A stretch of DNA of 38,217 bases, from IMG/VR virus record IMGVR_UViG_2547132077_000001, positions 1-38,217 of that record; one strand, 5' to 3'. Source of the stretch: a virus (taxonomy: Duplodnaviria; Heunggongvirae; Uroviricota; Caudoviricetes). Shown in pieces: positions 1,800 through 38,217 of the stretch. The position numbers and the translations under genes were made by a program. Position 1 is the stretch's first letter. Each line of letters opens with the position of its first letter. Under the pieces are notes generated by a model. That model was given only the letters and a program-made list of their open reading frames with translations, searched no databases and had not been told where the DNA came from.

Positions 1800-3860
1800 C
1801 TATGGGGTTATATAATCATAATCCGACTTCATCCTTTCAGTTTCAGCGTAGCTAAAAGTATTAGCCGCTCCGCACAGGCCAAAGCGACCTCTGTTCATGC
1901 GATGCCCTGTGACAAAAATATTAGTAGAGTATGGTGTTGTGGCTCCGATCTCTACAACTATACATGATTTAGTATTTTCAACCCCTGAAACTCCAACCGT
2001 AAAGGTCATTTCCTTCCACGAGCCTCCACCTACTAATGTTTTTGAAAGTAGTGTAGTTCTTGCTCCATTGTCATTTGCTACATATATGTGCACTAAAAAT
2101 GTTAGTTCAACATCAGCGTTAAACAAAGCCTGGACTGTCACTGCCTCACCATTCACCAAGTCGGCTCGTGGATGTTCGAATATAATCGATGTCGTTGCAC
2201 CAGCATCACTAAGAACAGATGCAATATAACGACTCATTCTCAATGCATTGTTTGGAATCCCTGCACCACTCCTAGTAAACACTGTATTAGATGTTGATCT
2301 TGCAAACCATCCAGGAGCCACAGCAGTTGATGAGTTGGGAGGAATACTTACTGTGCTGTTCTCTATATAAATAATGTCACCATTCAGAGCTGGTATATTT
2401 GCATTGTATTTATCAATAACAGAAACATGGTTAGATGTTAACGGAAGAAGCGGCATATTTTCAGCGACAATCCTTCCGGCAACAATCTTTTGATATGGCA
2501 AATCGTTAATTGATATTATTGGCTGAATAAAACCTGACCCTGGAATATTTGAAATAAATACCTTGTCAACCTCCAAATAGTTCATTATCACATCATCATT
2601 CCCAGCAACAATTATTCTGTTTGAGTTTATGCCATGTAAATTAGCATAAACATCATTTATAGTGATGTCAGTCAGTATCTGCTGCGATGTCGTTTCTGAA
2701 TCGCCAATTTGTACGACTTGTTGGTGTCCAAATGCCATCTCGCAATAAAGTCCATCAACTGAAGAAAACGTTGATGGATATCCAAAAATAACGCATGTTT
2801 TTGCATTCTGTGCGGAGTTGTCTTTTATTCTCGTTGCGACAGCAGATGTATATGACATAATGCCAGTACCGACAGCGCTACCACCCTGCCATGCACATCT
2901 ATTAAATGCAATAAAAAGCCTACTATTTCCTGAATATCTATCTGTTGTGTTACCGCCATCATCAATTGCCTTGACAAAATTATTGGCGTGATCGTTATAT
3001 TCCATGTATGTATTATTTATAATATGTGGCCACCAATTTTGTGCTTTAAAATTAACTACCCACTCGTTGCTATCTTCAGGATTGATAACACGACATTTCT
3101 CTACTGTTGCCATATGAGATGTCCACGGCTCAAATTCAACAAGCTTTGCCGTGCCACCATCCATCATTACATTTCTAATTTCATAGCTGTCTTGAGAAAA
3201 AAATGCTGATCGCTGATCTATACCATCCATGCCCATAGAAAATATTGGTCCAATGTCACTATTTATTGGATCGCATACAAACTGAAAATCAACATGCGTT
3301 GGAGTTTTAAACGTATATCTGCCAAGTTGAAAACCATCTTCATGAATCGGGTTCCAGCGCTTATACCCTGAATATCCTTCTGTAGGTGGTGGATTTGGCC
3401 TTTCATCCAAACTTTGGATTAGTTCAAACTCATGTTCCAAGCTTCTTAGCGAATCGCTTACAGTTCCTGCGCCATCTCCAATATATGTCGAACCTTCGTT
3501 CCCTGTCAGTAAAACTTTGAACTGATCCGGGTCATACTTCAGCACATTCGGAAAATAAAACTGCTGCGCCCCATACGCATCATAAACAGCCATGGAATGG
3601 CCTTGCACAGTTACGAACTTGGCAATCTGTCCGTTATATACCGGATATCCGGCAGCGTTAATGATGATTGGTTGCGATACAGGAACATGAGAGCCGTCTT
3701 CGTTCTCCACATAAACCTGAATCTGGTTTTCAGGGTTTACCGGGTCAGTGTCAATTTTACCGATATAAATTTTGCCATTGGCTACGGCTTTAAAAGAACG
3801 AGCCATAGTGAAGAGTTGCGAAGGCATCGATACGATCACATTGGCTGTAATGTCTGTCAT
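1800..3860 (-). CDS. Tailspike protein: P22/Sf6-type N-terminal head-binding domain fused to a divergent receptor-binding domain
   Basis: First ~115 aa ([46 protein letters not shown]...VLKYDPDQ) match the conserved head-binding domain of P22-like tailspikes as I recall them. The remaining ~570 aa I do not recognise. Position at the end of the virion block next to ant is as in P22. Confidence 0.9.
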
Positions 3861-3960: not shown

Positions 3961-4839
3961 TCAGTAGTTATGTACTGAAGGAGGCAATTCTTTATTCTTA
4001 AGTCTCATCCATGCGGAAAGATTCGTTGGTCCGTCTGGCTCATTAATATCAACATCTCGTGTGTGGTTTATTAAAACGTCTCTCGCCATTCCGATAACAT
4101 ACGAGAATTCATGACCGTAGTCGTAGCATCTGCCGGAATAGTTCGATTGAATTTGTTTTAGCGCCGGATACAGTTCGCGGAATAATGCCTGTGAGCGGTT
4201 GGCATAATCCCATAACCATACAAGGCTGTTTGCTTCTTTTGCAGAAAGCTCGTTGGTTTTCTTCTCTTGTTTACCAATGAACTCACCTTCAAGCACTACC
4301 CTGTGGATGTACTCTACGGCCAGCGGGATTTGTTCAATTGAAAGTTCATCAATGCTGTCAATACCAAAACGCTGATGAACCATATTGTATGCATCGTCAT
4401 AGCGAAGTCCTTTCTTTCCTACCAGCATGTTTACTGCATCGCGTAGCGGTGTTCTTTCCTCAACAGTGGTTTTCTTTCCTTTTACATACTCGCCATGTTT
4501 GCGAATTGAAGGCAGAACTTCTGCTGTTACCCACTTGCGGAATTTGTGCGGGACTGAACCTTTATTGACTGCATCGCGGCAGCGCAGAACCAATGTATAC
4601 ATACCTGATTCGCTCACAATGCTTAGATTCTGCTCACCACCAAGGGTGTAACTTAAAGTTACTCCCTTTTCATCGTCATCAAGTGCAGTAAGCGCCTTGC
4701 GTGAGTTAGTCAAATCTAAAGCATCACAAACATCTTTAGCTACAAACCACGGCTCACCGCACTTGTTGATGACGCGGATTTCACTGTCGCCGAATTTGAA
4801 GATGGTGAAATCGTTTTGTGCCTTTGCTATACTTTTCAT
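3961..4839 (-). CDS. ant: Antirepressor Ant (BRO-N/KilA-N type N-terminal domain)
   Basis: 292 aa, N-terminal [16 protein letters not shown] motif typical of phage antirepressors; sits immediately downstream of arc as in the P22 immI region. Confidence 0.85.
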
Positions 4840-29878: not shown

Positions 29879-31231
<1,353 letters not shown>

Positions 31232-31281
31232 TCCCCACCTCAATCTCAGTAACCCAAAAACAAACTATTTTCCGTTTAAAA

Positions 31282-31349
31282 ACAATGGAGTTTGTTTTTT
31301 GCACCTCCATTTACAATATTTCTTGTTTACAACATACAATCTTTCTTGT
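31282..31349. promoter_or_regulatory. Left operator OL with PL (three ACAA-N6-TTGT sites)
   Basis: ACAATGGAGTTTGT (31282-31295), ACAATATTTCTTGT (31313-31326), ACAATCTTTCTTGT (31336-31349), upstream of nutL and N. Confidence 0.8.
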
Positions 31350-31393
31350 AATTTTAAGCCATCAGCAGGACGCACTAACCACCATGAAGGTGA

Positions 31394-31424
31394 CGCTCTT
31401 AAAAATTAAGCCCTGAAGAAGGGC
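31394..31424 (+). promoter_or_regulatory. nutL (boxA CGCTCTTAAAAATTAA, boxB GCCCTGAAGAAGGGC)
   Basis: Matches lambda nutL as recalled; lies between PL/OL and N. Confidence 0.9.
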
Positions 31425-31534
31425 AGCATTCAAAGCAGAAAGCTTTGAATAGCGCGAAATGCAGCTGCAAGACAGCAACCGTGGAGATAAGCATCACGGC
31501 GCGTTACTCAAAGCTAACTGACAGGAGAATCCAG

Positions 31535-31861
31535 ATGGATGCACAAACACGCCGCCGCGAACGTCGCGCAGAGAAACAGGCTCAATGGAAAGCAGCAAAT
31601 CCCCTGTTGGTTGGGGTAAGCGCAAAACCAGTTAACCGCCCTATTCTCTCGCTGAATCGCAAACCGAAATCACGAGTAGAAAGCGCACTGAATCCGATAG
31701 ACCTTACAGTGCTGGCTGAATACCACGAACAGATTGAAAGCAACCTGCAACGTATTGAGCGCAAGAATCAGCGCACATGGTACAGCAAGCCACGCAGTGA
31801 AATGGGTGTGACTTGTGTTGGTCGCCAGAAAATGAAATTAGGCAGCAAACCACTTATTTGA
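31535..31861 (+). CDS. N: Antiterminator N (lambda type)
   Basis: Internal Met of the track ORF gives MDAQTRRRERRAEKQAQWKAANPLLVGVSAKPVNRPILSLNRKPKSRVESALNPIDLTVLAEYH..., matching lambda N as recalled, including the arginine-rich motif. Confidence 0.93.
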   Translation: MDAQTRRRERRAEKQAQWKAANPLLVGVSAKPVNRPILSLNRKPKSRVESALNPIDLTVLAEYHEQIESNLQRIERKNQRTWYSKPRSEMGVTCVGRQKMKLGSKPLI

Positions 31862-31869
31862 GGTGAGAT

Positions 31870-32121
31870 ATGGAGTTTCATGAAAGTGCGATTTGTGATT
31901 TTCGCGCTAACGCAAATTCAGTAAAACCACAGCCAATTGCAGTTCTTTTTAAAACAATGGGTGCGTGGGCTGTTTTATGCTTTGCCTCTGATGACACTGA
32001 CGCAAGAATGGCAATAGGCCAAGAGATGGAGATGGACCCGACAAACGATGAATTCATAATTTATGGCGCTCCATCTAATTACTTACTTGATACCTGCAAC
32101 ATTTACAACAAGGCTGCCTGA
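31870..32121 (+). CDS. Hypothetical early protein
   Basis: 83-aa ORF with RBS GAGGTGA, immediately after N. Confidence 0.55.
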   Translation: MEFHESAICDFRANANSVKPQPIAVLFKTMGAWAVLCFASDDTDARMAIGQEMEMDPTNDEFIIYGAPSNYLLDTCNIYNKAA

Positions 32122-32160
32122 TGGAGGCCTTTATTTTTGGCATAAACAACAGAGGCTAAC

Positions 32161-32457
32161 ATGGAATTTAAAGGTACTGAAGGTAAGTGGGAAATAATGA
32201 TGGATGGCGATGAGATTAAAATCATCCAGGCAGACTCACTTGAAAATGGCGCAGGCTGGCGTTCGTATATTGCAATCTGTGAGGAAGTTCAATGCATTGA
32301 AGATGCCAATCTAATAGCGGCAGCACCTGACCTTCTCGAAGCACTTCAGTTATTACTTAAGCAAACCAAAAATAGAACAACGACAACATATCCAGAATGG
32401 TATGGAGCTGTTAATAAAGGTCTCGCAGCAATAAGAAAAGCTCTTGGGGATAAGTAA
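32161..32457 (+). CDS. Hypothetical early protein
   Basis: 98-aa ORF with RBS AGAGG, co-oriented in the PL operon. Confidence 0.55.
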   Translation: MEFKGTEGKWEIMMDGDEIKIIQADSLENGAGWRSYIAICEEVQCIEDANLIAAAPDLLEALQLLLKQTKNRTTTTYPEWYGAVNKGLAAIRKALGDK

Positions 32458-32740
32458 TGAAAGTAAAAATAACTGCTTCTAATACCAGTTTGTTAGTGTT
32501 GGTGATATTACAGAAGTAATAACAAACCATGATGGAACACAAGTTATGTGGTCTGATTTTTGTAAAAGATATGAGCGAGTCACTTGGTGTAAACTCGTAT
32601 GGGGCGTCGAATACGAAGAATTACCTTGAAATGCATGACGAATAAGCACTGTGTATTCATTCCAACGAGTGAATACACGGAGCAATGTCGCTCGTAACTA
32701 AACAGGAGCCGACTTGTTCTGATTATTGGAAATCTTCTTT

Positions 32741-32768
32741 GCCCTCCAATGTGAGGGCAGTTTTTTTT
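32741..32768 (+). terminator. Intrinsic terminator in the PL operon (tL-like)
   Basis: GCCCTC-caatgt-GAGGGC hairpin followed by AGTTTTTTTT. Confidence 0.7.
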
Positions 32769-32781
32769 GACGGAGTAAACG

Positions 32782-33030
32782 ATGATAAAAACTGATTACC
32801 CTGCAGAGCTTAAACAAAAAGTAATAACAGCAATTAAATACTCTTTTATCTCATGTCGTACAGATGAAGAACGATATGTCGTTGAGTGTGCAATTGTCGA
32901 GTTTCTCACAGCGATGGAATTTACCGCTGCAGAATCAATAGATGTATTAAAGCAATCAGACGGAAATGATATTGAAACGGATGATGTTATTGACCGACTA
33001 ATAAAATCATTCGAAGAAGAAATAGAGTAG
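32782..33030 (+). CDS. Hypothetical early protein (acidic)
   Basis: 82-aa ORF with RBS GGAG, just after the terminator. Confidence 0.55.
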   Translation: MIKTDYPAELKQKVITAIKYSFISCRTDEERYVVECAIVEFLTAMEFTAAESIDVLKQSDGNDIETDDVIDRLIKSFEEEIE

Positions 33031-33113
33031 CCGCCTGAGCGCGGCTTTACCGCATACCAATAATGCTTCACGAGAGGCATTTTCGTTATGCAATCAAATA
33101 TAAGGAGTTACCC

Positions 33114-33248
33114 ATGATGCACTTTCAGCTCGCGGGTAGCGGCGTCATGTCCGCTTTCTACCCGCACGAATCTGAATTATCACGCCGAGTTAAACAATTA
33201 ATCAGAGCAGCAAAGAAACAACTGGAGGCGTTATGCGCAATGAAATAG
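33114..33248 (+). CDS. CIII-like protein (candidate FtsH inhibitor)
   Basis: Start at the internal ATG after RBS AGGAG; MMHFQLAGSGVMSAFYPHESELSRRVKQLIRAAKK loosely resembles the lambda CIII / P22 C3 core (..AG....ESLL.RITRKLR..); precedes the kil-like ORF as in P22. Confidence 0.5.
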   Translation: MMHFQLAGSGVMSAFYPHESELSRRVKQLIRAAKKQLEALCAMK

Positions 33249-33385
33249 CCATCAATCACCAGATGCTTCGTGCAGCACAAAACAAAGCAGTAATAGCCAG
33301 ATTTATTGGTGATTCCAAAATGTGGCTTGAAGCAAATAAAGCGATGAAATCAGCGATCAACATTCCGTGGTATCGCAGGAAATGA
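33233..33385 (+). CDS. Kil-like small protein (candidate cell-division inhibitor)
   Basis: 50-aa ORF not in the track; RBS GGAGG; IARFIGDSKMWLEANKAMKSAI resembles lambda Kil IATFIGDEKMFREAVDAYKKWI as recalled. Confidence 0.5.
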   Translation: MRNEIAINHQMLRAAQNKAVIARFIGDSKMWLEANKAMKSAINIPWYRRK

Positions 33386-33460
33386 GTTTTACAGATAACT
33401 GGTCAGACGAAGAATTCATTCGTCAGATGAAAGAATTAATCGGTAACGAAGGAGATATTC

Positions 33461-33631
33461 ATGTCACTTGCAACCACAGTGAAGGAGAGCAAGTTACAGA
33501 GACGCATGTACACGCAGAAAGCTCTCTGGTATCGCCATAATGGCGACCGCGAAGGAATGCGGGTATGCCTTAATTTGTCCCGAGTCGAAGTATTAAATCA
33601 GCGTTATTTCCTTGGGCCGTGTCCATTCTGA
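33461..33631 (+). CDS. Small hypothetical protein
   Basis: 56-aa ORF not in the track; strong RBS AAGGAGA 7 nt before the ATG; lies just upstream of the annealing-protein gene, where P22 has arf. Confidence 0.4.
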   Translation: MSLATTVKESKLQRRMYTQKALWYRHNGDREGMRVCLNLSRVEVLNQRYFLGPCPF

Positions 33632-33639
33632 GGTGAATT

Positions 33640-34347
33640 ATGGATTTGAACAAATTCGATGAGCCATTCTGCCCTGAAGATATCGAATGGCGAATACAGC
33701 AAAGCGGTAAAACACGCGATGGCAAGGTATGGGCTATGGTGCTGGCTTATGTAACGAACAGGGCAATCATGAAACGCCTGGACGATGTTTGTGGCAAAGC
33801 AGGATGGCGCAATGAATACCGCGATATTCCCAACAACGGCGGAGTTGAATGCGGCATATCAATAAAGATTGATTCCGAATGGGTAACCAAATGGGATGCT
33901 GCTGAAAACACGCAGGTAGAAGCCGTCAAAGGTGGTCGTTCCGGTGCAATGAAGCGCGCTGCCGTTCAGTGGGGAATCGGTCGGTATCTGTATAACATTG
34001 AGGAAGGTTTCGCACAAACATCTCTCGATAAAAAGCAGGGATGGCACAGGGCAAAACTCAAGGATGGAACAGGATTTTACTGGCTCCCTCCATCGCTGCC
34101 GGGATGGGCAATCCCAGCATCAGATAACAAACCATCACCAGAAAATACCAACCAGAAATCTCCATCGGTTGACTGCGAGCAAATCCTGAAAGACTTCAGC
34201 GATTATGCGTCAACAGAAACTGACAAGAAAAAACTCATCGAGCGTTATCAGCGTGACTGGCAATTAATGGCTGGCAACGAGGAGGCGCAGGCTAAATGCG
34301 TTCAGGTAATGAACATCAGAGTTAACGAACTAAAACAGGCGGCATAA
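33640..34347 (+). CDS. Rad52-family single-strand annealing protein (recombinase)
   Basis: 235 aa; KGGRSGAMKRAAVQWGIGRYLY resembles the conserved Rad52/Sak DNA-binding motif; directly upstream of ssb. Confidence 0.75.
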   Translation: MDLNKFDEPFCPEDIEWRIQQSGKTRDGKVWAMVLAYVTNRAIMKRLDDVCGKAGWRNEYRDIPNNGGVECGISIKIDSEWVTKWDAAENTQVEAVKGGRSGAMKRAAVQWGIGRYLYNIEEGFAQTSLDKKQGWHRAKLKDGTGFYWLPPSLPGWAIPASDNKPSPENTNQKSPSVDCEQILKDFSDYASTETDKKKLIERYQRDWQLMAGNEEAQAKCVQVMNIRVNELKQAA

Positions 34348-34821
34348 ATGGCAAGCAGAGGCGTAAATAAGGTGATCATTATTGGTCGCCTTGGGCATGG
34401 TCCAGAAATCAGATATTCACCATCAGGAACGGCATTTGCAAACCTTACCGTTGCTACGTCAGAACAATGGCGTGATAAGCAAACTGGAGAGCAAAAGGAG
34501 CAGACGGAGTGGCACCGCGTGGTAATGAGCGGGAAACTGGCAGAAATTGCCAGCGAATATCTGCGAAAAGGCTCTGAGGTTTATCTTGAAGGAAAATTGC
34601 GGACAAGAAAATGGCAGGATCAAAGCGGACAGGATCGGTTCACTACCGAAGTTATCGTAGGCGTTGGTGGAACCATGCAAATGCTTGGTGGCAAGCAAGG
34701 AGGCAATGAACAGTCTTCACCTCAGCGAAATAACGGTCAGCAACAAAGACAGCAACCTCAGCAGCATGGAAATCACAGCGAACCACCTATGAACTTCGAC
34801 GATTCGGATATTCCGTTCTAG
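34348..34821 (+). CDS. ssb: Single-stranded DNA-binding protein
   Basis: 157 aa; OB-fold N-terminal part, Gly/Gln-rich linker, acidic C-terminal tail DDSDIPF. Confidence 0.9.
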
Positions 34822-34830
34822 GAGCTGAAT

Positions 34831-35310
34831 ATGAAAATCTGCTCAAGATGCCATCAACAGAAGGAAGAAAGGGACTTTCAAATCAGAAGAGCATCCAGAG
34901 ATGGATTAACTGCCGCTTGCCGGGCTTGCCTGGCTGAATACGACAAAGAACGCGCTGGATTGCCACATCGAGTATTAGCAAGGAGAGAATATCAATCATC
35001 GGAACGCGGCAGAGAACGGTGTAACGCAGCCAAAAAGCGATTCATTCAGAGCAACCCATGGAAAAGAAAAGCCCACATCATCGTGGGTAATTTTTTGCGC
35101 GACGGTAAGCTAATCCGACCACCACAATGTGAGTGCTGCGGATCAGAATGTAAACCACAGGCGCACCACTGCGACTACAGCAAACCAACCGATGTGATGT
35201 GGCTCTGCAAGTCATGTCATGTCGAGTGGCACAAACATAACAAACCTATCTACCCAGACGAGGAACCAGTAACTCTCCCCTTCCCTCGTCACGCTATTCA
35301 CGCAATTTAA
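34831..35310 (+). CDS. Cys/His-rich putative HNH-type nuclease
   Basis: 159 aa with CxxC pairs and AHHCDYSKPTDVMWLCKSCHVEWH (HNH-like); RBS AGGAG. Confidence 0.6.
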   Translation: MKICSRCHQQKEERDFQIRRASRDGLTAACRACLAEYDKERAGLPHRVLARREYQSSERGRERCNAAKKRFIQSNPWKRKAHIIVGNFLRDGKLIRPPQCECCGSECKPQAHHCDYSKPTDVMWLCKSCHVEWHKHNKPIYPDEEPVTLPFPRHAIHAI

Positions 35311-35323
35311 TCAGGAGAAAATC

Positions 35324-35620
35324 ATGCCAGCGCCTCAGTATGGTGCGGATGACCCGCGCCGCTGTTCCGGCAATTCCGTATCGGAGGTGCTGGATAAATT
35401 CAGAAAAAACTACGATCGGATAATGTCTCTACCGCAGGAAACGAAAGATGAAAAGGAATTTCGCCACTGTATATGGCTTGCAGAGAAAGAAGAGCGCGAG
35501 CGAATTTACCAGACATCAATCCGACCATTCCGCAAAGCCACATATACCCACTTCCCTGAATATATCGACCCGCGCCTGCGTAATTACCGCTCACGCTATG
35601 GCGCTATCAGTAATGACTGA
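35324..35620 (+). CDS. Hypothetical early protein; possibly P22 Abc2-like anti-RecBCD protein (tentative)
   Basis: 98 aa; RBS AGGAG; size and position downstream of the recombinase and ssb match P22 abc2. Assignment is by synteny and size only. Confidence 0.6.
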
Positions 35621-35630
35621 GGAATTTACC

Positions 35631-35795
35631 ATGAGAGGACTTGCATACAATCCCGGCATTCTTCCGGCAGAAATGATTATTCGCCAACGCGTAAAGCCAA
35701 TGCCATCGAGAGAGGAATTGCTTAAGAGAAATTCTTTTCCATCAGTGAATCAAAACAAATATCTGAATGCGATGTGGCGGAGTGGGAAAAAATGA
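35631..35795 (+). CDS. Small hypothetical protein
   Basis: Start at the internal Met (MRGLAYNPG...) with RBS GAGGA; the upstream part of the track ORF overlaps the previous gene in another frame. Confidence 0.45.
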
Positions 35796-36313
35796 AACAA
35801 ATGTCACTAATTGAGATGGATGGTTTTCTGAAAGGTAAATGCATCCCAAGTGATTTAAAGGTTAACGAAACAAACGCTGAATATCTTGTCCGTAAGTTCG
35901 GTGAACTTGAATCAAAACTCAACGAGCAGCGTGAGTATTACGAAGGTGTTATCTCGGATGGGAGTAAGCGTATTGCTGAACTGGAGAAAAGCGAAGAGCA
36001 ACTCATCAGCGAGCGTGATCATGCTGAGTCTGCTTTAGCTGATATGTATTTTGCAGCAACCGGGGATAGGCCGGAGTGGAGCAACTTGTTCGGCTTTTCA
36101 GATGCTGTAGATGCCGTGGTTGACAGAATTGCTGATTTAGAAGCTAAACAGCCATCGCCAGTAGTACCGGAAGGACTGATTAAAGCGGTGCGTTTTTATG
36201 AGCAGGTAAAACGTGAGAACCCGCCAGTCGAAACCGGAGCATGGAAAGACGCTGTTGACTGGGTGCTCAAAGAGGCTTGCCCGGCTGTAAACATTGGCAT
36301 CAAAGGAGAGTGA
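35792..36313 (+). CDS. Hypothetical early protein
   Basis: ATG overlaps the previous stop (ATGA); about 173 aa, predicted coiled coil in the middle. Confidence 0.55.
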
Positions 36314-36314
36314 T

Positions 36315-36524
36315 ATGGCTATCGCTGCAAGTTACACCATGCATCTCTATTGTGACTGCCGCCAGTGTACGGAAGGTGTATATCCAGTGCCAGACTTCGG
36401 TGAGTATATCGGTACGTCATGGTCTGGTTGTGCAAAAGAGGCCCGTAAAGACGGGTGGCGAATAAGTAAAGACAAAACACGTGCTTTTGCGCCCGGGCAT
36501 AAAGTTTTGAGGATTAACAAATGA
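36315..36524 (+). CDS. Small Cys-rich hypothetical protein
   Basis: Start at the internal Met (MAIAASYTMHLYCDCRQC...) preceded by RBS AAGGAGAG. Confidence 0.5.
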   Translation: MAIAASYTMHLYCDCRQCTEGVYPVPDFGEYIGTSWSGCAKEARKDGWRISKDKTRAFAPGHKVLRINK

Positions 36525-37291
36525 CCACTATTACCAAAGAGCGACTGCTGACAATCAAGCAGTGGCACGAAACATACGGACCTGGTAGCAACGTTGTACT
36601 GCCAGCAGAAGAAGCGGAAGAACTGGCACGAATTGCTCTGGCAGCGCTGGAAGCAGATCCAGTTGCTTATATTTTCAAACATCCGGCCGGGAAATTATTC
36701 TGGGCTTTAACGGATGAAAGCAATAAAGATCAATCGGACGTTATTCCTGTTTATGCCGCCCCTCCAGTGCCAGTAGTACCTGAAGAAAAACCAATGCCTA
36801 ACCCTCTTAAAATGTACGCGGTCGATGCTGTTGCCGCTATTGCAGAGGTGAGAGGCTGGAACTCCTGCCGCGCCGCTATGCTTCAGGGTAGCCAACCTGT
36901 AAGCCAAACTTACAAGTTTCCAGTTAATACACCTTGCCAAGATGCGCCAGCCCATATCTGGCTGCAAACAGCTGGAGTATGGCCAGAAGATGGCGAGTTA
37001 AGCGAATTAACGTGGTGCAGCCACAATCAGCACCATGATGACACGCTATATGTTCGAGCTGACTTGGTAAATGGCAATTCTCCGGTAACTCCGGATAGTT
37101 GGATAAGCTGTAGTGAGCGAATGCCCCCTCAAGATGATTGGATTTTAATTTATTCAAAGCACGGCGAGTATATGGCAGGACAGGTACAAGGGGAATACGT
37201 GGAGTTGAGCGACGGCACTTTATCGTGGTTAGGGAACGCCTTGTTCTGGATGCCGCTACCGGAACCGCCGCAGGAGGTTAACCGTGGCTAA
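36521..37291 (+). CDS. Hypothetical protein with a C-terminal DUF551-like region
   Basis: 256 aa; ATGA overlap with the previous gene; C-terminal WISCSERMPPQDDWILIYSKHGEY resembles the DUF551 motif common in enterobacterial prophage early regions. Confidence 0.6.
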   Translation: MTTITKERLLTIKQWHETYGPGSNVVLPAEEAEELARIALAALEADPVAYIFKHPAGKLFWALTDESNKDQSDVIPVYAAPPVPVVPEEKPMPNPLKMYAVDAVAAIAEVRGWNSCRAAMLQGSQPVSQTYKFPVNTPCQDAPAHIWLQTAGVWPEDGELSELTWCSHNQHHDDTLYVRADLVNGNSPVTPDSWISCSERMPPQDDWILIYSKHGEYMAGQVQGEYVELSDGTLSWLGNALFWMPLPEPPQEVNRG

Positions 37292-37565
37292 CCTGCAACT
37301 TGCCGTCAAAGGTGAATACTTCGATGCCATGATTCGCAGAGAGAAAACGGAAGAGTATCGCCTGTGTAATGACTATTGGAATAAGCGCCTCGTTAACCGT
37401 AAGTATGACCGCCTGATTATCACAAAGGGATATCCGAAGCGCGACGATTCCAGCCGCAGAATTGACGTTCCGTATGGCGGCTATGAAATCAAGACAATCA
37501 CACATCCGCACTTCGGCGATAAACCGGTAAAGGTGTACGCGATAAAGGTGAATATTGATGGCTAA
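37284..37565 (+). CDS. ASCH/DUF3850-like small protein
   Basis: GTG start with RBS AGGAGG; 93 aa; pattern YFDAMIRREKTEEYRLCND resembles ASCH-like beta-barrel proteins. Confidence 0.5.
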   Translation: MANLQLAVKGEYFDAMIRREKTEEYRLCNDYWNKRLVNRKYDRLIITKGYPKRDDSSRRIDVPYGGYEIKTITHPHFGDKPVKVYAIKVNIDG

Positions 37566-37676
37566 ATTAGTAGCATAGCATAAAGATGCTTGCATTAATG
37601 AAGTGTGTATAATAACGCCTCATCAATAGTAAACTACTGAAATAGCAAAAAATGCATATTAAAGAGGATTCGAAAA

Positions 37677-37868
37677 TTGAAAATGTTCATGCAAATAGAC
37701 AGACGCATAGATATTAATGGCAATTCATACTTAGTTAGATGCGAAGAGAGGCCTAACGGTGAGTGGCGTGTATATGATATTGACCGTAAGATCAATATCA
37801 GCACCATGAACAAAGACACTGCCTTTGATGAATGGAAAGCTGAAGCTAAAAAACAACATAATTCGTAG
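37677..37868 (+). CDS. Small hypothetical protein
   Basis: 63-aa ORF after an AT-rich intergenic region containing TATAAT (37608-37613); start ambiguous (TTG at 37677 or ATG at 37683). Confidence 0.4.
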   Translation: MKMFMQIDRRIDINGNSYLVRCEERPNGEWRVYDIDRKINISTMNKDTAFDEWKAEAKKQHNS

Positions 37869-37948
37869 AATTACAAATACCCTAACCAATTGATGGATTT
37901 CTTTTATCTGAACTCGCTACGGCGAGTTTTGTTTTATGGAGATGATAA

Positions 37949-38116
37949 ATGCACTTCCGAGTTACAGGTGAATGGAATGGAGAACCATTCAACAGAGTTA
38001 TCGAAGCAGAGAACATCAATGACTGCTATGACCACTGGATGCTGTGGGCGCAGATAGCACATGCAGAAGTAACCAATATTCGAATTGAAGAACTGAAAGA
38101 ACACCAAGCCGCCTGA
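37949..38116 (+). CDS. Small hypothetical protein
   Basis: 55-aa ORF not in the track, followed immediately by an intrinsic terminator. Confidence 0.4.
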   Translation: MHFRVTGEWNGEPFNRVIEAENINDCYDHWMLWAQIAHAEVTNIRIEELKEHQAA

Positions 38117-38128
38117 TGGCGGTTTTTT
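38107..38128 (+). terminator. Intrinsic terminator
   Basis: GCCGCC-tgat-GGCGG hairpin followed by TTTTTTT. Confidence 0.65.
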
Positions 38129-38217
38129 TGGGGGTAGTAGATGGATGCAATTCACATTGTATCAATAACATGCAATGCAATTCAGATAGTTTCTTGCATT
38201 ATCTTTGTTTTCTCAAT

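Follow-up and report, generated by a model that had tools for sequence, protein, structure and literature searches.

The distal early-left genes of a P22-like phage read as the end of a recombination module followed by swappable cassettes

Is the run of small genes that lies behind the recombination genes of a P22-like phage an anti-defence region, or does it serve more than one purpose? The question is raised by positions 34831-37868 of IMG/VR virus record IMGVR_UViG_2547132077_000001, positions 1 to 38,217 of which were analysed as one window of 38.2 kilobases (kb). An initial annotation had described this interval as an early-left cluster of small uncharacterised genes and as a candidate anti-defence region. 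The analysis presented here indicates that the interval probably makes up the distal half of an early-left operon, that of a temperate phage of the P22/Sf6/HK620 kind, and that it consists of two adjacent parts rather than one system. Part A (34831-35795) would be the end of a recombination (Rec) module; it would complete a set of four functions (annealase, SSB, HNH, and Abc2) and add an always-linked DUF2737 gene. Part B (35792-38116) would be a series of translationally coupled, swappable cassettes between two anchors, abc2-DUF2737 on one side and ORF55-terminator-xis on the other. The members of part B appear to be built by domain shuffling, and in the first of them a different payload would follow the leader of Oad2, an inhibitor of OLD.

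The window is a mosaic match to P22-like podophages (genus Lederbergvirus), including HK620, Sf6, and Sf101. The virion genes are 95-97% identical to those of HK620, N7, and Sf6, and the early region is 97-98% identical to Sf101, mEp043, and Sf6. No database record spans even 80% of the interval 34831-37868. On the plus strand, genes for a repressor of the cI type and for an N-like antiterminator, whose arginine-rich motif is that of lambda N, are followed by cIII, kil, a Rad52-type annealase, and ssb. The same order is annotated in Sf6 and Sf101, and therefore the interval belongs to the distal part of a P22-like phage's early-left (PL-type) operon, where the initial annotation had placed it. 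Every gene has close relatives in sequenced phages, so the region is a new mosaic of a known kind.

The interval is filled by eight plus-strand open reading frames (ORFs). Each of the eight matches a conserved PHROG family with an E value between 1e-36 and 1e-72, so they are genes and not chance ORFs, and the earlier description of eight tightly packed or overlapping ORFs behind the recombinase and ssb is borne out by these matches and by the spacing. The sequence shows spacers of 9 nucleotides (nt) between ssb and the HNH gene, 13 nt between the HNH gene and abc2, and 10 nt between abc2 and the DUF2737 gene. Four coupled junctions follow, namely an ATGA overlap between the DUF2737 gene and a gene for a 173-residue protein, TGAtATG, a second ATGA, and an 8-nt overlap between the DUF551 and ASCH genes, where the GTG start of the ASCH gene is located behind an AGGAGG ribosome-binding site. 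A 111-nt AT-rich gap separates the ASCH gene from a gene for a 63-residue protein. Homologues were used to set the starts of three genes: the DUF2737 gene occupies 35631-35795 and not the 115-residue ORF from 35448, the 173-residue gene starts at ATG 35792 and not at GTG 35774, and the gene for a 69-residue protein starts at 36315. The array runs past 37868 into a terminator-like hairpin, a ninth gene (ORF55), and an intrinsic terminator.

Part A is the end of an Sf6/ES18-type Rec module, in which annealase, SSB, HNH, and Abc2 are followed by DUF2737. A 2025 survey of lambdoid phages describes contiguous Rec modules that consist of an annealase, an SSB, a nuclease, and an anti-RecBCD protein; the nuclease may be Exo, RecE, a DnaQ-like protein, or an HNH protein, and modules of the ES18 type have all four functions (Genome Res 2025, PMC12315714). 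The window features the four genes contiguously at 33640-35620, and they are 98-99% identical to Sf6 genes 28, 27, 26, and 25. The annealase (33640-34347, plus strand, Pfam PF04098) and the SSB (34348-34821, plus strand, Pfam PF00436) are 98.7% identical to Sf6 genes 28 and 27. The cluster is not uniformly uncharacterised, as had been claimed, since the HNH, Abc2, and DUF2737 genes are the tail of a described lambdoid Rec module.

The product of 35324-35620 (plus strand, 98 residues) is unambiguously Abc2, which turns the possible Abc2-like protein of the initial annotation into a certain one. Pfam PF11043 covers residues 1-98 of 98 (E 1.1e-60, 202 bits against a cut-off of 25), the PHROG family is phrog_656, and the match to the P22 Abc2 structure (PDB 8b1t) has an E value of 2.6e-55. 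The protein is 90.8% identical to P22 Abc2; the modelled RecC-binding region (residues 3-66) has only four substitutions, and the PpiB site, Pro68, is conserved (IRP68FRK). Homology thus establishes its role against RecBCD. The most likely target of Abc2 is the Chi-recognition domains of host RecC, and the RecC-bound protein would turn RecBCD from a phage-degrading nuclease into a helper of the phage annealase, a step that is taken over from the structurally characterised P22 protein because the two are 91% identical. A count of Chi sites was uninformative, with 0 observed and 0.9 expected.

The DUF2737 protein (35631-35795, plus strand) features 54 residues, is very basic with an isoelectric point of 11, and matches Pfam PF10930 with an E value of 1.8e-30. 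It corresponds to P22 orf56 (75% identity), Sf6 gene 23 (96%), HK620 hkaI, and HK446 gp28. The gene is present together with abc2 in 57 of 58 related IMG/VR loci that have enough downstream sequence, the set used below for all counts of the variable region. The phage collection holds 223 full-length records of DUF2737 and 225 of Abc2. The DUF2737 protein looks like a fixed companion of abc2.

The HNH gene (34831-35310, plus strand) encodes a 159-residue protein and is an optional cassette of the module. Motif, fold, and homology assign its product to the HNH (His-Me finger) endonuclease-like proteins. From the N- to the C-terminus, the protein consists of a CxxC...CxxC zinc ribbon, a helical linker, and a beta-beta-alpha domain. 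The ribbon is shared by its 74 relatives, among which C100, C103, H112, H113, D115, H130, and H134 are invariant and C126 and C129 are near-invariant. The AlphaFold2 model (predicted local distance difference test score of 93) has strands at residues 110-113 and 122-125 and a helix at residues 127-136. This agrees with the beta-beta-alpha-metal fold of HNH proteins, in which strand 1 ends with a catalytic His, the helix supplies a His or Asn as metal ligand, and two CxxC pairs often brace the structure. A Foldseek search of BFVD gave 30 matches at E ≤ 1e-3, with hits named HNH endonuclease, HNHc, and endonuclease VII. By tblastn, Sf6 gene 26 is 99.4% identical, and further relatives turned up in phages of Vibrio, Klebsiella, Bacillus, Pseudomonas, and Staphylococcus. 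No significant match to a curated HNH sequence model and no strong match to a solved structure came from Pfam, NCBIfam, PDB phmmer, or profile searches. The HNH label was settled by structure prediction, motifs, and tblastn only, which agree with the earlier call of a Cys/His-rich HNH-like protein. The RefSeq annotation (PGAP) omits the gene in the E. coli genomes checked, the record of phage N7 omits it too, and the same 159-residue gene lies unannotated at 4001-4480 of locus L004; more than 1200 near-identical copies of this confidently folded protein are present in public data.

The HNH protein resembles I-KsaII, which is encoded by an intron in polA of Staphylococcus Kayvirus. The two proteins are 35% identical over nearly the full length, and both feature an N-terminal zinc ribbon and a C-terminal CxxC...HH.DY...CxxCH core; however, I-KsaII lies inside an intron whereas the window gene stands alone behind ssb. 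The only match to an anti-restriction family in the interval is that of HNH residues 1-68 to a PHROG labelled 'Lar-like', at zinc-ribbon level (E 1e-6). An anti-restriction function of the HNH gene is not supported; the gene behaves as an optional mobile cassette, and the family of its product includes an intron-encoded endonuclease.

The HNH gene is found at one conserved 45-nt junction (CCAGTAAC...CAATTTAA, plus strand, 35266-35310), which supplies the last 14 codons and the stop codon of the upstream gene, either HNH or SSB. Exact copies of the junction occur in at least 120 IMG/VR loci, in frame with SSB in 93 and with HNH in 27. The insertion point is located between the ...IPF codon of SSB and the junction. 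These 27 occupied and 93 empty sites at an identical junction, together with the relative in the polA intron, mark the HNH gene as probably mobile. On the 3' side, abc2 follows in 72 loci and a gene for a DnaQ-like exonuclease in 48, and the presence or absence of HNH is independent of the downstream gene across the 120 loci. The full HNH gene was found in 98 of 5426 complete E. coli genomes, and in about 300 further E. coli genomes no more than the final 46 nt are present, as part of ssb. The slot can also be occupied, with the same tail, by a second HNH type that is 47% identical. The predicted RNA fold of the junction is unremarkable (z = -1.1).

The insertion of the cassette decides how SSB ends. 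In the window (34795-34821), where the cassette is present, SSB ends at the canonical ...IPF tip as ...DDSDIPF. Where it is absent (in 93 of the 120 IMG/VR loci and in about 300 genomes of E. coli), ssb ...GATTTTGACGACGATATACCCTTTGCACCAGTAACTC... reads into the junction, and the protein ends as ...DDDIPF-APVTLPFPRHAIHAI*, with a 15-residue extension. This comparison covers loci L001, L010-L012, and L015-L134. The free C-terminal Phe of SSB matters for partner binding, and the extension may for this reason alter which proteins are recruited by prophage SSBs. Occupied sites with a readable SSB tip number 25; the tip is DDSDIPF at all 24 sites of type 1 and NFDDEIPF at the single site of type 2. 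DDSDIPF was found in 0 of 91 empty sites, most of which encode DDDIPF. The association between SSB tip and HNH would fit target-site immunity, and it would also fit plain linkage.

We take the HNH gene to be a cassette for a predicted endonuclease of the homing type, possibly selfish. The protein would be an I-KsaII-family His-Me-finger endonuclease that is inserted as an option at one precise site, most likely a selfish homing-type nuclease, and it may double as the break-making nuclease of the module. Several observations count against the homing assignment. The gene is tightly packed between ssb and abc2, with the 9-nt and 13-nt spacers and good ribosome-binding sites, the ES18 HNH protein is counted as a legitimate Rec-module member (PMC12315714), and the link between SSB tip and HNH could be plain haplotype linkage instead of target-site immunity. 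The first two, and a distant homologue in Vibrio phage K228 that also adjoins ssb, would suit a true Rec-module nuclease that makes or processes ends for the annealase. This alternative is rather unlikely, as otherwise identical modules work without the HNH gene, which is present in only 27 of the 120 junction loci and in 98 of 5426 E. coli genomes against about 300 with an empty site. Additionally, homologues are found in unrelated contexts, including the group I intron in Kayvirus polA, and the authors of PMC12315714 themselves warn that HNH genes are mobile. Another HNH type has also invaded the annealase-ssb junction in locus L007, where a Pfam HNH_3 gene (155 residues, 2560-3027) is present besides the HNH gene after ssb, so that this module has two HNH cassettes.

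In rare chimeric proteins (P0011, P0013, P0024, P0053, and P0056), parts of the HNH gene are fused with SSB, with a DnaQ-like exonuclease, or with a helix-turn-helix protein, and in P0013 the join is at a shared 'IVG' microhomology. These chimeras look like products of deletion or recombination at this hotspot.

Downstream of the HNH cassette and abc2-DUF2737, part B is a hypervariable 'ea' cassette region, the counterpart of the P22 ea and lambda exo-xis regions. In the 58 related loci, ORF55 lies between 1.4 and 5.3 kb away from the junction. Abc2 is present in all 58 and DUF2737 in 57, whereas the ASCH gene is present in 10, the 173-residue gene in 4, the 69-residue gene in 2, and the 63-residue gene in none. 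The anchors Abc2/DUF2737 and ORF55 thus enclose genes that are found in 0-10 of 58 loci. Conserved anchors around variable content are the pattern of phage accessory regions, and this pattern has been used to find counter-defence genes (Silas et al.). The part B genes would most likely encode early host-interaction proteins that act in counter-defence, in the choice between lysis and lysogeny, or in both.

The first cassette of part B encodes an acidic coiled-coil protein of 173 residues (35792-36313, plus strand) and lies directly after the DUF2737 gene with an ATGA overlap, as gp27 does behind gp28 in HK446. According to a preprint of July 2026 (10.64898/2026.07.10.737580), the abortive tRNase OLD of phage P2 responds to inhibitors of RecBCD and to the Gp33 proteins of HK75 and HK446, and it is bound and inhibited by HK446 gp27, which was given the name Oad2. 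The preprint describes Oad2 as a relative of P22 EaE in which fusions to HNH or EaD/Ea22 modules sometimes occur, notes that a homologue with 54% identity to Oad2 showed no OLD inhibition, and proposes recombination loci as anti-defence hotspots. Residues 1-43 of the window protein (35792-35920) are 93% identical to HK446 gp27 and feature the leader of the Oad2/EaE family (MKQMxLIEMDG...) at the same locus. The payload that follows is a coiled coil and a phrog_26213 C-terminal domain. Beyond residue 43 neither BLAST nor hhalign (probability 0.2%) found similarity to Oad2, and the TPATDAFLAEVRAQ motif of the EaE-like core and the C-terminal QLRKGGNQ tail are both absent. Orthology with Oad2 was considered and is rejected beyond the 43-residue leader.

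Oad2 has the TPATDAFLAEVRAQ motif and the tail, as do P22 EaE (with QLRKGVQS as its tail) and most of the 49 leader-bearing proteins, with TPATDA in 29 of the 49. Payloads are unique in 46 of these proteins, whose lengths range from 42 to 301 residues, and some of them join a coiled coil of the window type directly to a DUF551 end. OLD inhibition cannot be transferred to the 173-residue protein, because the 54% identical homologue failed to inhibit OLD. The Oad2 slot is the best-supported place in the interval for a putative new counter-defence specificity. A wider idea, which is improbable at present, is that of a locus with a constant leader and a swappable payload, in which different payloads neutralise different abortive guards that sense tampering with RecBCD. 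Oad2 and OLD would be the one known case, the window payload would act on a different guard that is triggered by the phage's own Abc2 and Gp33-like proteins, and the downstream ASCH, DUF551/EaA, and 69-residue proteins would possibly be further counter-defence proteins. If this idea is true, inhibitors of defence systems that guard RecBCD could be drawn from this locus as from a ready-made library.

Two genes upstream of the interval are of related kinds. A 52-residue ORF just upstream of the annealase (33382-33540) has the PHROG label 'recombinase' and is 88% identical to HK446 Gp33, the OLD trigger and possible new RecBCD manipulator (10.64898/2026.07.10.737580). An 82-residue acidic protein (32782-33030) is 98.8% identical to HK446 gp36 and belongs to phrog_14587, labelled 'anti-restriction protein', without Pfam support.

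The candidate anti-defence region of the initial annotation stands in part. The anti-RecBCD assignment of abc2 by homology, the hypervariability of the distal part, and the Oad2 slot with its leader support it, while no other anti-defence match was found. Apart from Abc2, no gene of the interval matches a characterised anti-defence protein over its functional part; Pfam and NCBIfam revealed no homology to Ral, Lar, Ocr, ArdA, or Gam over the functional region, the distal genes have no NCBIfam or known anti-defence family match, and PADLOC found no defence-system homology. Anti-defence by genes other than Abc2 is a plausible conjecture. The stronger form of this reading, in which several small genes beyond abc2 each inhibit host immunity (restriction-modification, RecBCD guards such as OLD or retrons, or other systems), is doubtful. 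In its favour, abc2 truly serves counter-defence, and the distal genes have the signature by which counter-defence genes are sought, being small, early, and hypervariable within conserved flanks. OLD is also inhibited by HK446 gp27, which has the slot and the leader in common with the window protein, at a locus that its authors call an anti-defence hotspot; the homologue of the OLD trigger Gp33 and the gene at 32782-33030 with its anti-restriction label point the same way. However, the 173-residue protein is unlike Oad2 outside the leader and has neither the TPATDAFLAEVRAQ motif nor the tail, the Oad2 homologue at 54% identity failed against OLD, the other genes match no known anti-defence family, and none of the distal proteins has the extreme acidity of DNA mimics. 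In the text of the supplement to the accessory-gene screen of Silas et al., none of the interval gene sequences and no abc2 entry were found. A literature search on the functions of P22 'ea' genes found only unrelated 'EAE' papers.

The position of the cassettes between the recombination genes and xis matches the lambda exo-xis region, and this position is also the starting point for a developmental explanation. The genes would then be modulators of development or host physiology, like the exo-xis genes of lambda and Stx phages, that tune lysis-lysogeny, induction, host replication, or stress and not immunity. The 173-residue protein has the architecture described for Ea22, with an N-terminal segment, a coiled coil, and a variable C-terminal domain; the Ead_Ea22 match (Pfam PF13935) is below threshold, at 22.2 bits against a cut-off of 27 and over a 37-residue stretch of the coiled coil only. 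Variant V2 of Ea22 also contains DUF551, and so does YfdS, a protein connected with tolerance of oxidative stress. Additionally, lambda Ea22 is pro-lysogenic, and the lambda exo-xis proteins, which together with Ea22 are the nearest analogues that have been studied, affect the lysis-lysogeny choice. Against this, the studied lambda proteins show weak homology or none, with negative results of PDB sequence searches, and such extreme turnover of cassettes would be expected of genes in an arms race rather than of core regulators of development. As a general explanation in place of immunity functions it is improbable, developmental and anti-defence roles are not mutually exclusive, and for the remaining genes modulation of lysis-lysogeny is an equally live alternative to counter-defence.

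A two-part array of Rec-module end and swappable cassettes remains the preferred reading of the interval, and some points weigh against it. Transcription of the interval genes from PL under N antitermination is deduced from synteny, functional evidence covers no more than 2 of the 9 genes, so that 'host-interaction cassettes' is a class label and not a mechanism, and the OLD-binding part of Oad2 is not stated in the work on Oad2, which is a preprint only (10.64898/2026.07.10.737580).

The two cassettes that follow the 173-residue gene are found in the same order, coiled-coil gene, 69-residue gene, and DUF551 gene, in loci L001 and L004. The 69-residue protein (36315-36524, plus strand) features 4 Cys and 2 His residues and matches phrog_926 (E 1.3e-36); no match was found in Pfam, NCBIfam, or the PDB. 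The next gene (36521-37291, plus strand) encodes an EaA-like mosaic protein of 256 residues with a C-terminal DUF551 domain at residues 193-251 (nt 37097-37273), which matches Pfam PF04448 with 40 bits against a cut-off of 22, as the earlier label of a DUF551-like protein had suggested. The protein is about 29% identical to P22 EaA over the full length and has more than 8000 mosaic relatives, all close relatives feature PF04448, and a 100% identical copy is present in Escherichia fergusonii ECD227, which hints at a possible source of the virus. A 22-nt repeat (86% identical) at 36152-36173 and 36764-36785 encodes a P-x-P-V-V-P-E linker in both the coiled-coil and the DUF551 proteins. The P-VVPE linker repeat is likely a domain-shuffling joint.

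The ASCH gene (37284-37565, plus strand) encodes a basic single-domain ASCH (PUA-like) protein of 93 residues, and both fold and motif bear out its earlier designation as ASCH-like. The predicted structure has the ASCH beta-barrel fold, and the ASCH label, like that of HNH, was settled by structure prediction, motifs, and tblastn only. The signature motif of ASCH is reportedly GxKxxExR (Iyer et al. 2006). The family consensus is G-E-K-T-E-E-Y-R with K21, E24, and R26 invariant, which agrees with this signature; the motif glycine, G19, is an arginine in the window copy, as it is in 2 of 30 sequences. Pfam, NCBIfam, PDB phmmer, and PDB profile searches gave no match, and an hhalign comparison with YqfB was negative. 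Compared with E. coli YqfB (an ac4C amidohydrolase), ZmASCH, and the TRIP4 ASCH domain, the window protein is a minimal domain of 93 residues with no detectable sequence similarity.

The minus-strand ORFs of the interval are rejected as shadows. One of them, a 105-residue ORF at 37278-37595 antisense to the ASCH gene, matches phrog_20945 (E 2.5e-53); it is rejected because the plus-strand ASCH gene has the fold, a ribosome-binding site, and more than 640 relatives. The family phrog_20945 probably consists of shadow ORFs that were called on the wrong strand in other phage records, and looks like a propagated misannotation.

The last gene of the interval (37677-37868, plus strand) is a rare cassette for a 63-residue protein that matches phrog_16329 (E 8.5e-49), and one Stx2a phage record covers the gene and its flanks. 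The segment 37566-37950, which carries this gene, is AT-rich, with 35-38% GC against 44-52% in the flanks, and a perfect TATAAT without a -35 element precedes the gene at 37608-37613. The promoter scan found fewer sigma-70 matches than expected by chance and none before the 63-residue gene. The layout of this segment resembles a moron (a self-contained insert). A terminator-like hairpin followed by a T-rich run (37910-37929, plus strand) lies on the 3' side of the gene.

The right-hand anchor is formed by ORF55 (37949-38116, plus strand, 55 residues, phrog_676) and an intrinsic terminator (38109-38129, plus strand; CCGCC-TGAT-GGCGG followed by T7), which overlaps the ORF55 stop codon in the sequence. 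ORF55 and the terminator are common to phage 434, CUS-3, and many lambdoid phages, and the site equivalent to 38109-38129 is annotated 'terminator' in the phage 434 record M60848. Direct repeats ATGCAATTCACATTGTATC and ATGCAATTCAGATAGTTTC, 30 nt apart, are located within 38145-38206, and a TTGC-N6-TTTG element is located at 38193-38206, just past the ORF55 terminator. The repeats and the TTGC element may be control sites of the cII/C1 type or related to Int/Xis, ahead of xis. An Rfam search at E ≤ 1 found no RNA family in 30000-38217.

Regions of this type are well populated and already catalogued, and the value of the present analysis is a precise map. The map draws a line between the Rec module with its anti-RecBCD gene and those cassettes that are truly variable, and it singles out 35792-36313 as the best candidate for a new specificity, at a place where an immunity inhibitor has just been shown.

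The comparison with related phages shows which elements are constant. The order of the Rec module is that of Sf6 genes 28-25 (Casjens 2004), and the window DUF2737 protein is 96% identical to Sf6 gene 23; however, Sf6 has an extra gene 24 between abc2 and DUF2737, and its distal cassettes are different, namely gene 22, the Ead/Ea22-like gene 21, the Lar-like gene 20, and gene 19. The annealase of the window features an N-terminal core that is Rad52-like and not Erf-like, while its 79 C-terminal residues (157-235; 34108-34347) are 63% identical to the C-terminus of P22 Erf. The annealase looks like a domain mosaic, and its Erf-like C-terminus may contact SSB or the Abc2-RecBCD complex. In P22, Erf is accompanied by Abc1 and Arf, and neither an SSB nor an HNH gene is present. 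The P22 abc2-orf56-ea region (eaE, eaF, eaD, eaI, eaA, eaG, and eaC) has the same recombination-to-xis position as the window region, and EaE, the Oad2 relative, directly follows orf56, where the window has the same kind of gene with a different payload.

The gene order in HK446 is gp33, erf, gp31, abc2, gp29, DUF2737, Oad2, and xis. HK446 gp27 and the 173-residue window protein share the slot, the ATGA overlap, and the size (175 and 173 residues), but residues 44-173 of the window protein are unrelated to Oad2. The lambda exo-xis region (Ea22, Ea8.5, and orf60a/61/63) is alike in position, in early expression, in its mosaic of small genes, and in having coiled-coil proteins with swappable C-terminal domains, DUF551 included. 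No significant sequence match was found between the window proteins and the lambda Ea22 C-terminal domain or Ea8.5, and the phenotypes described for lambda exo-xis concern lysogeny.

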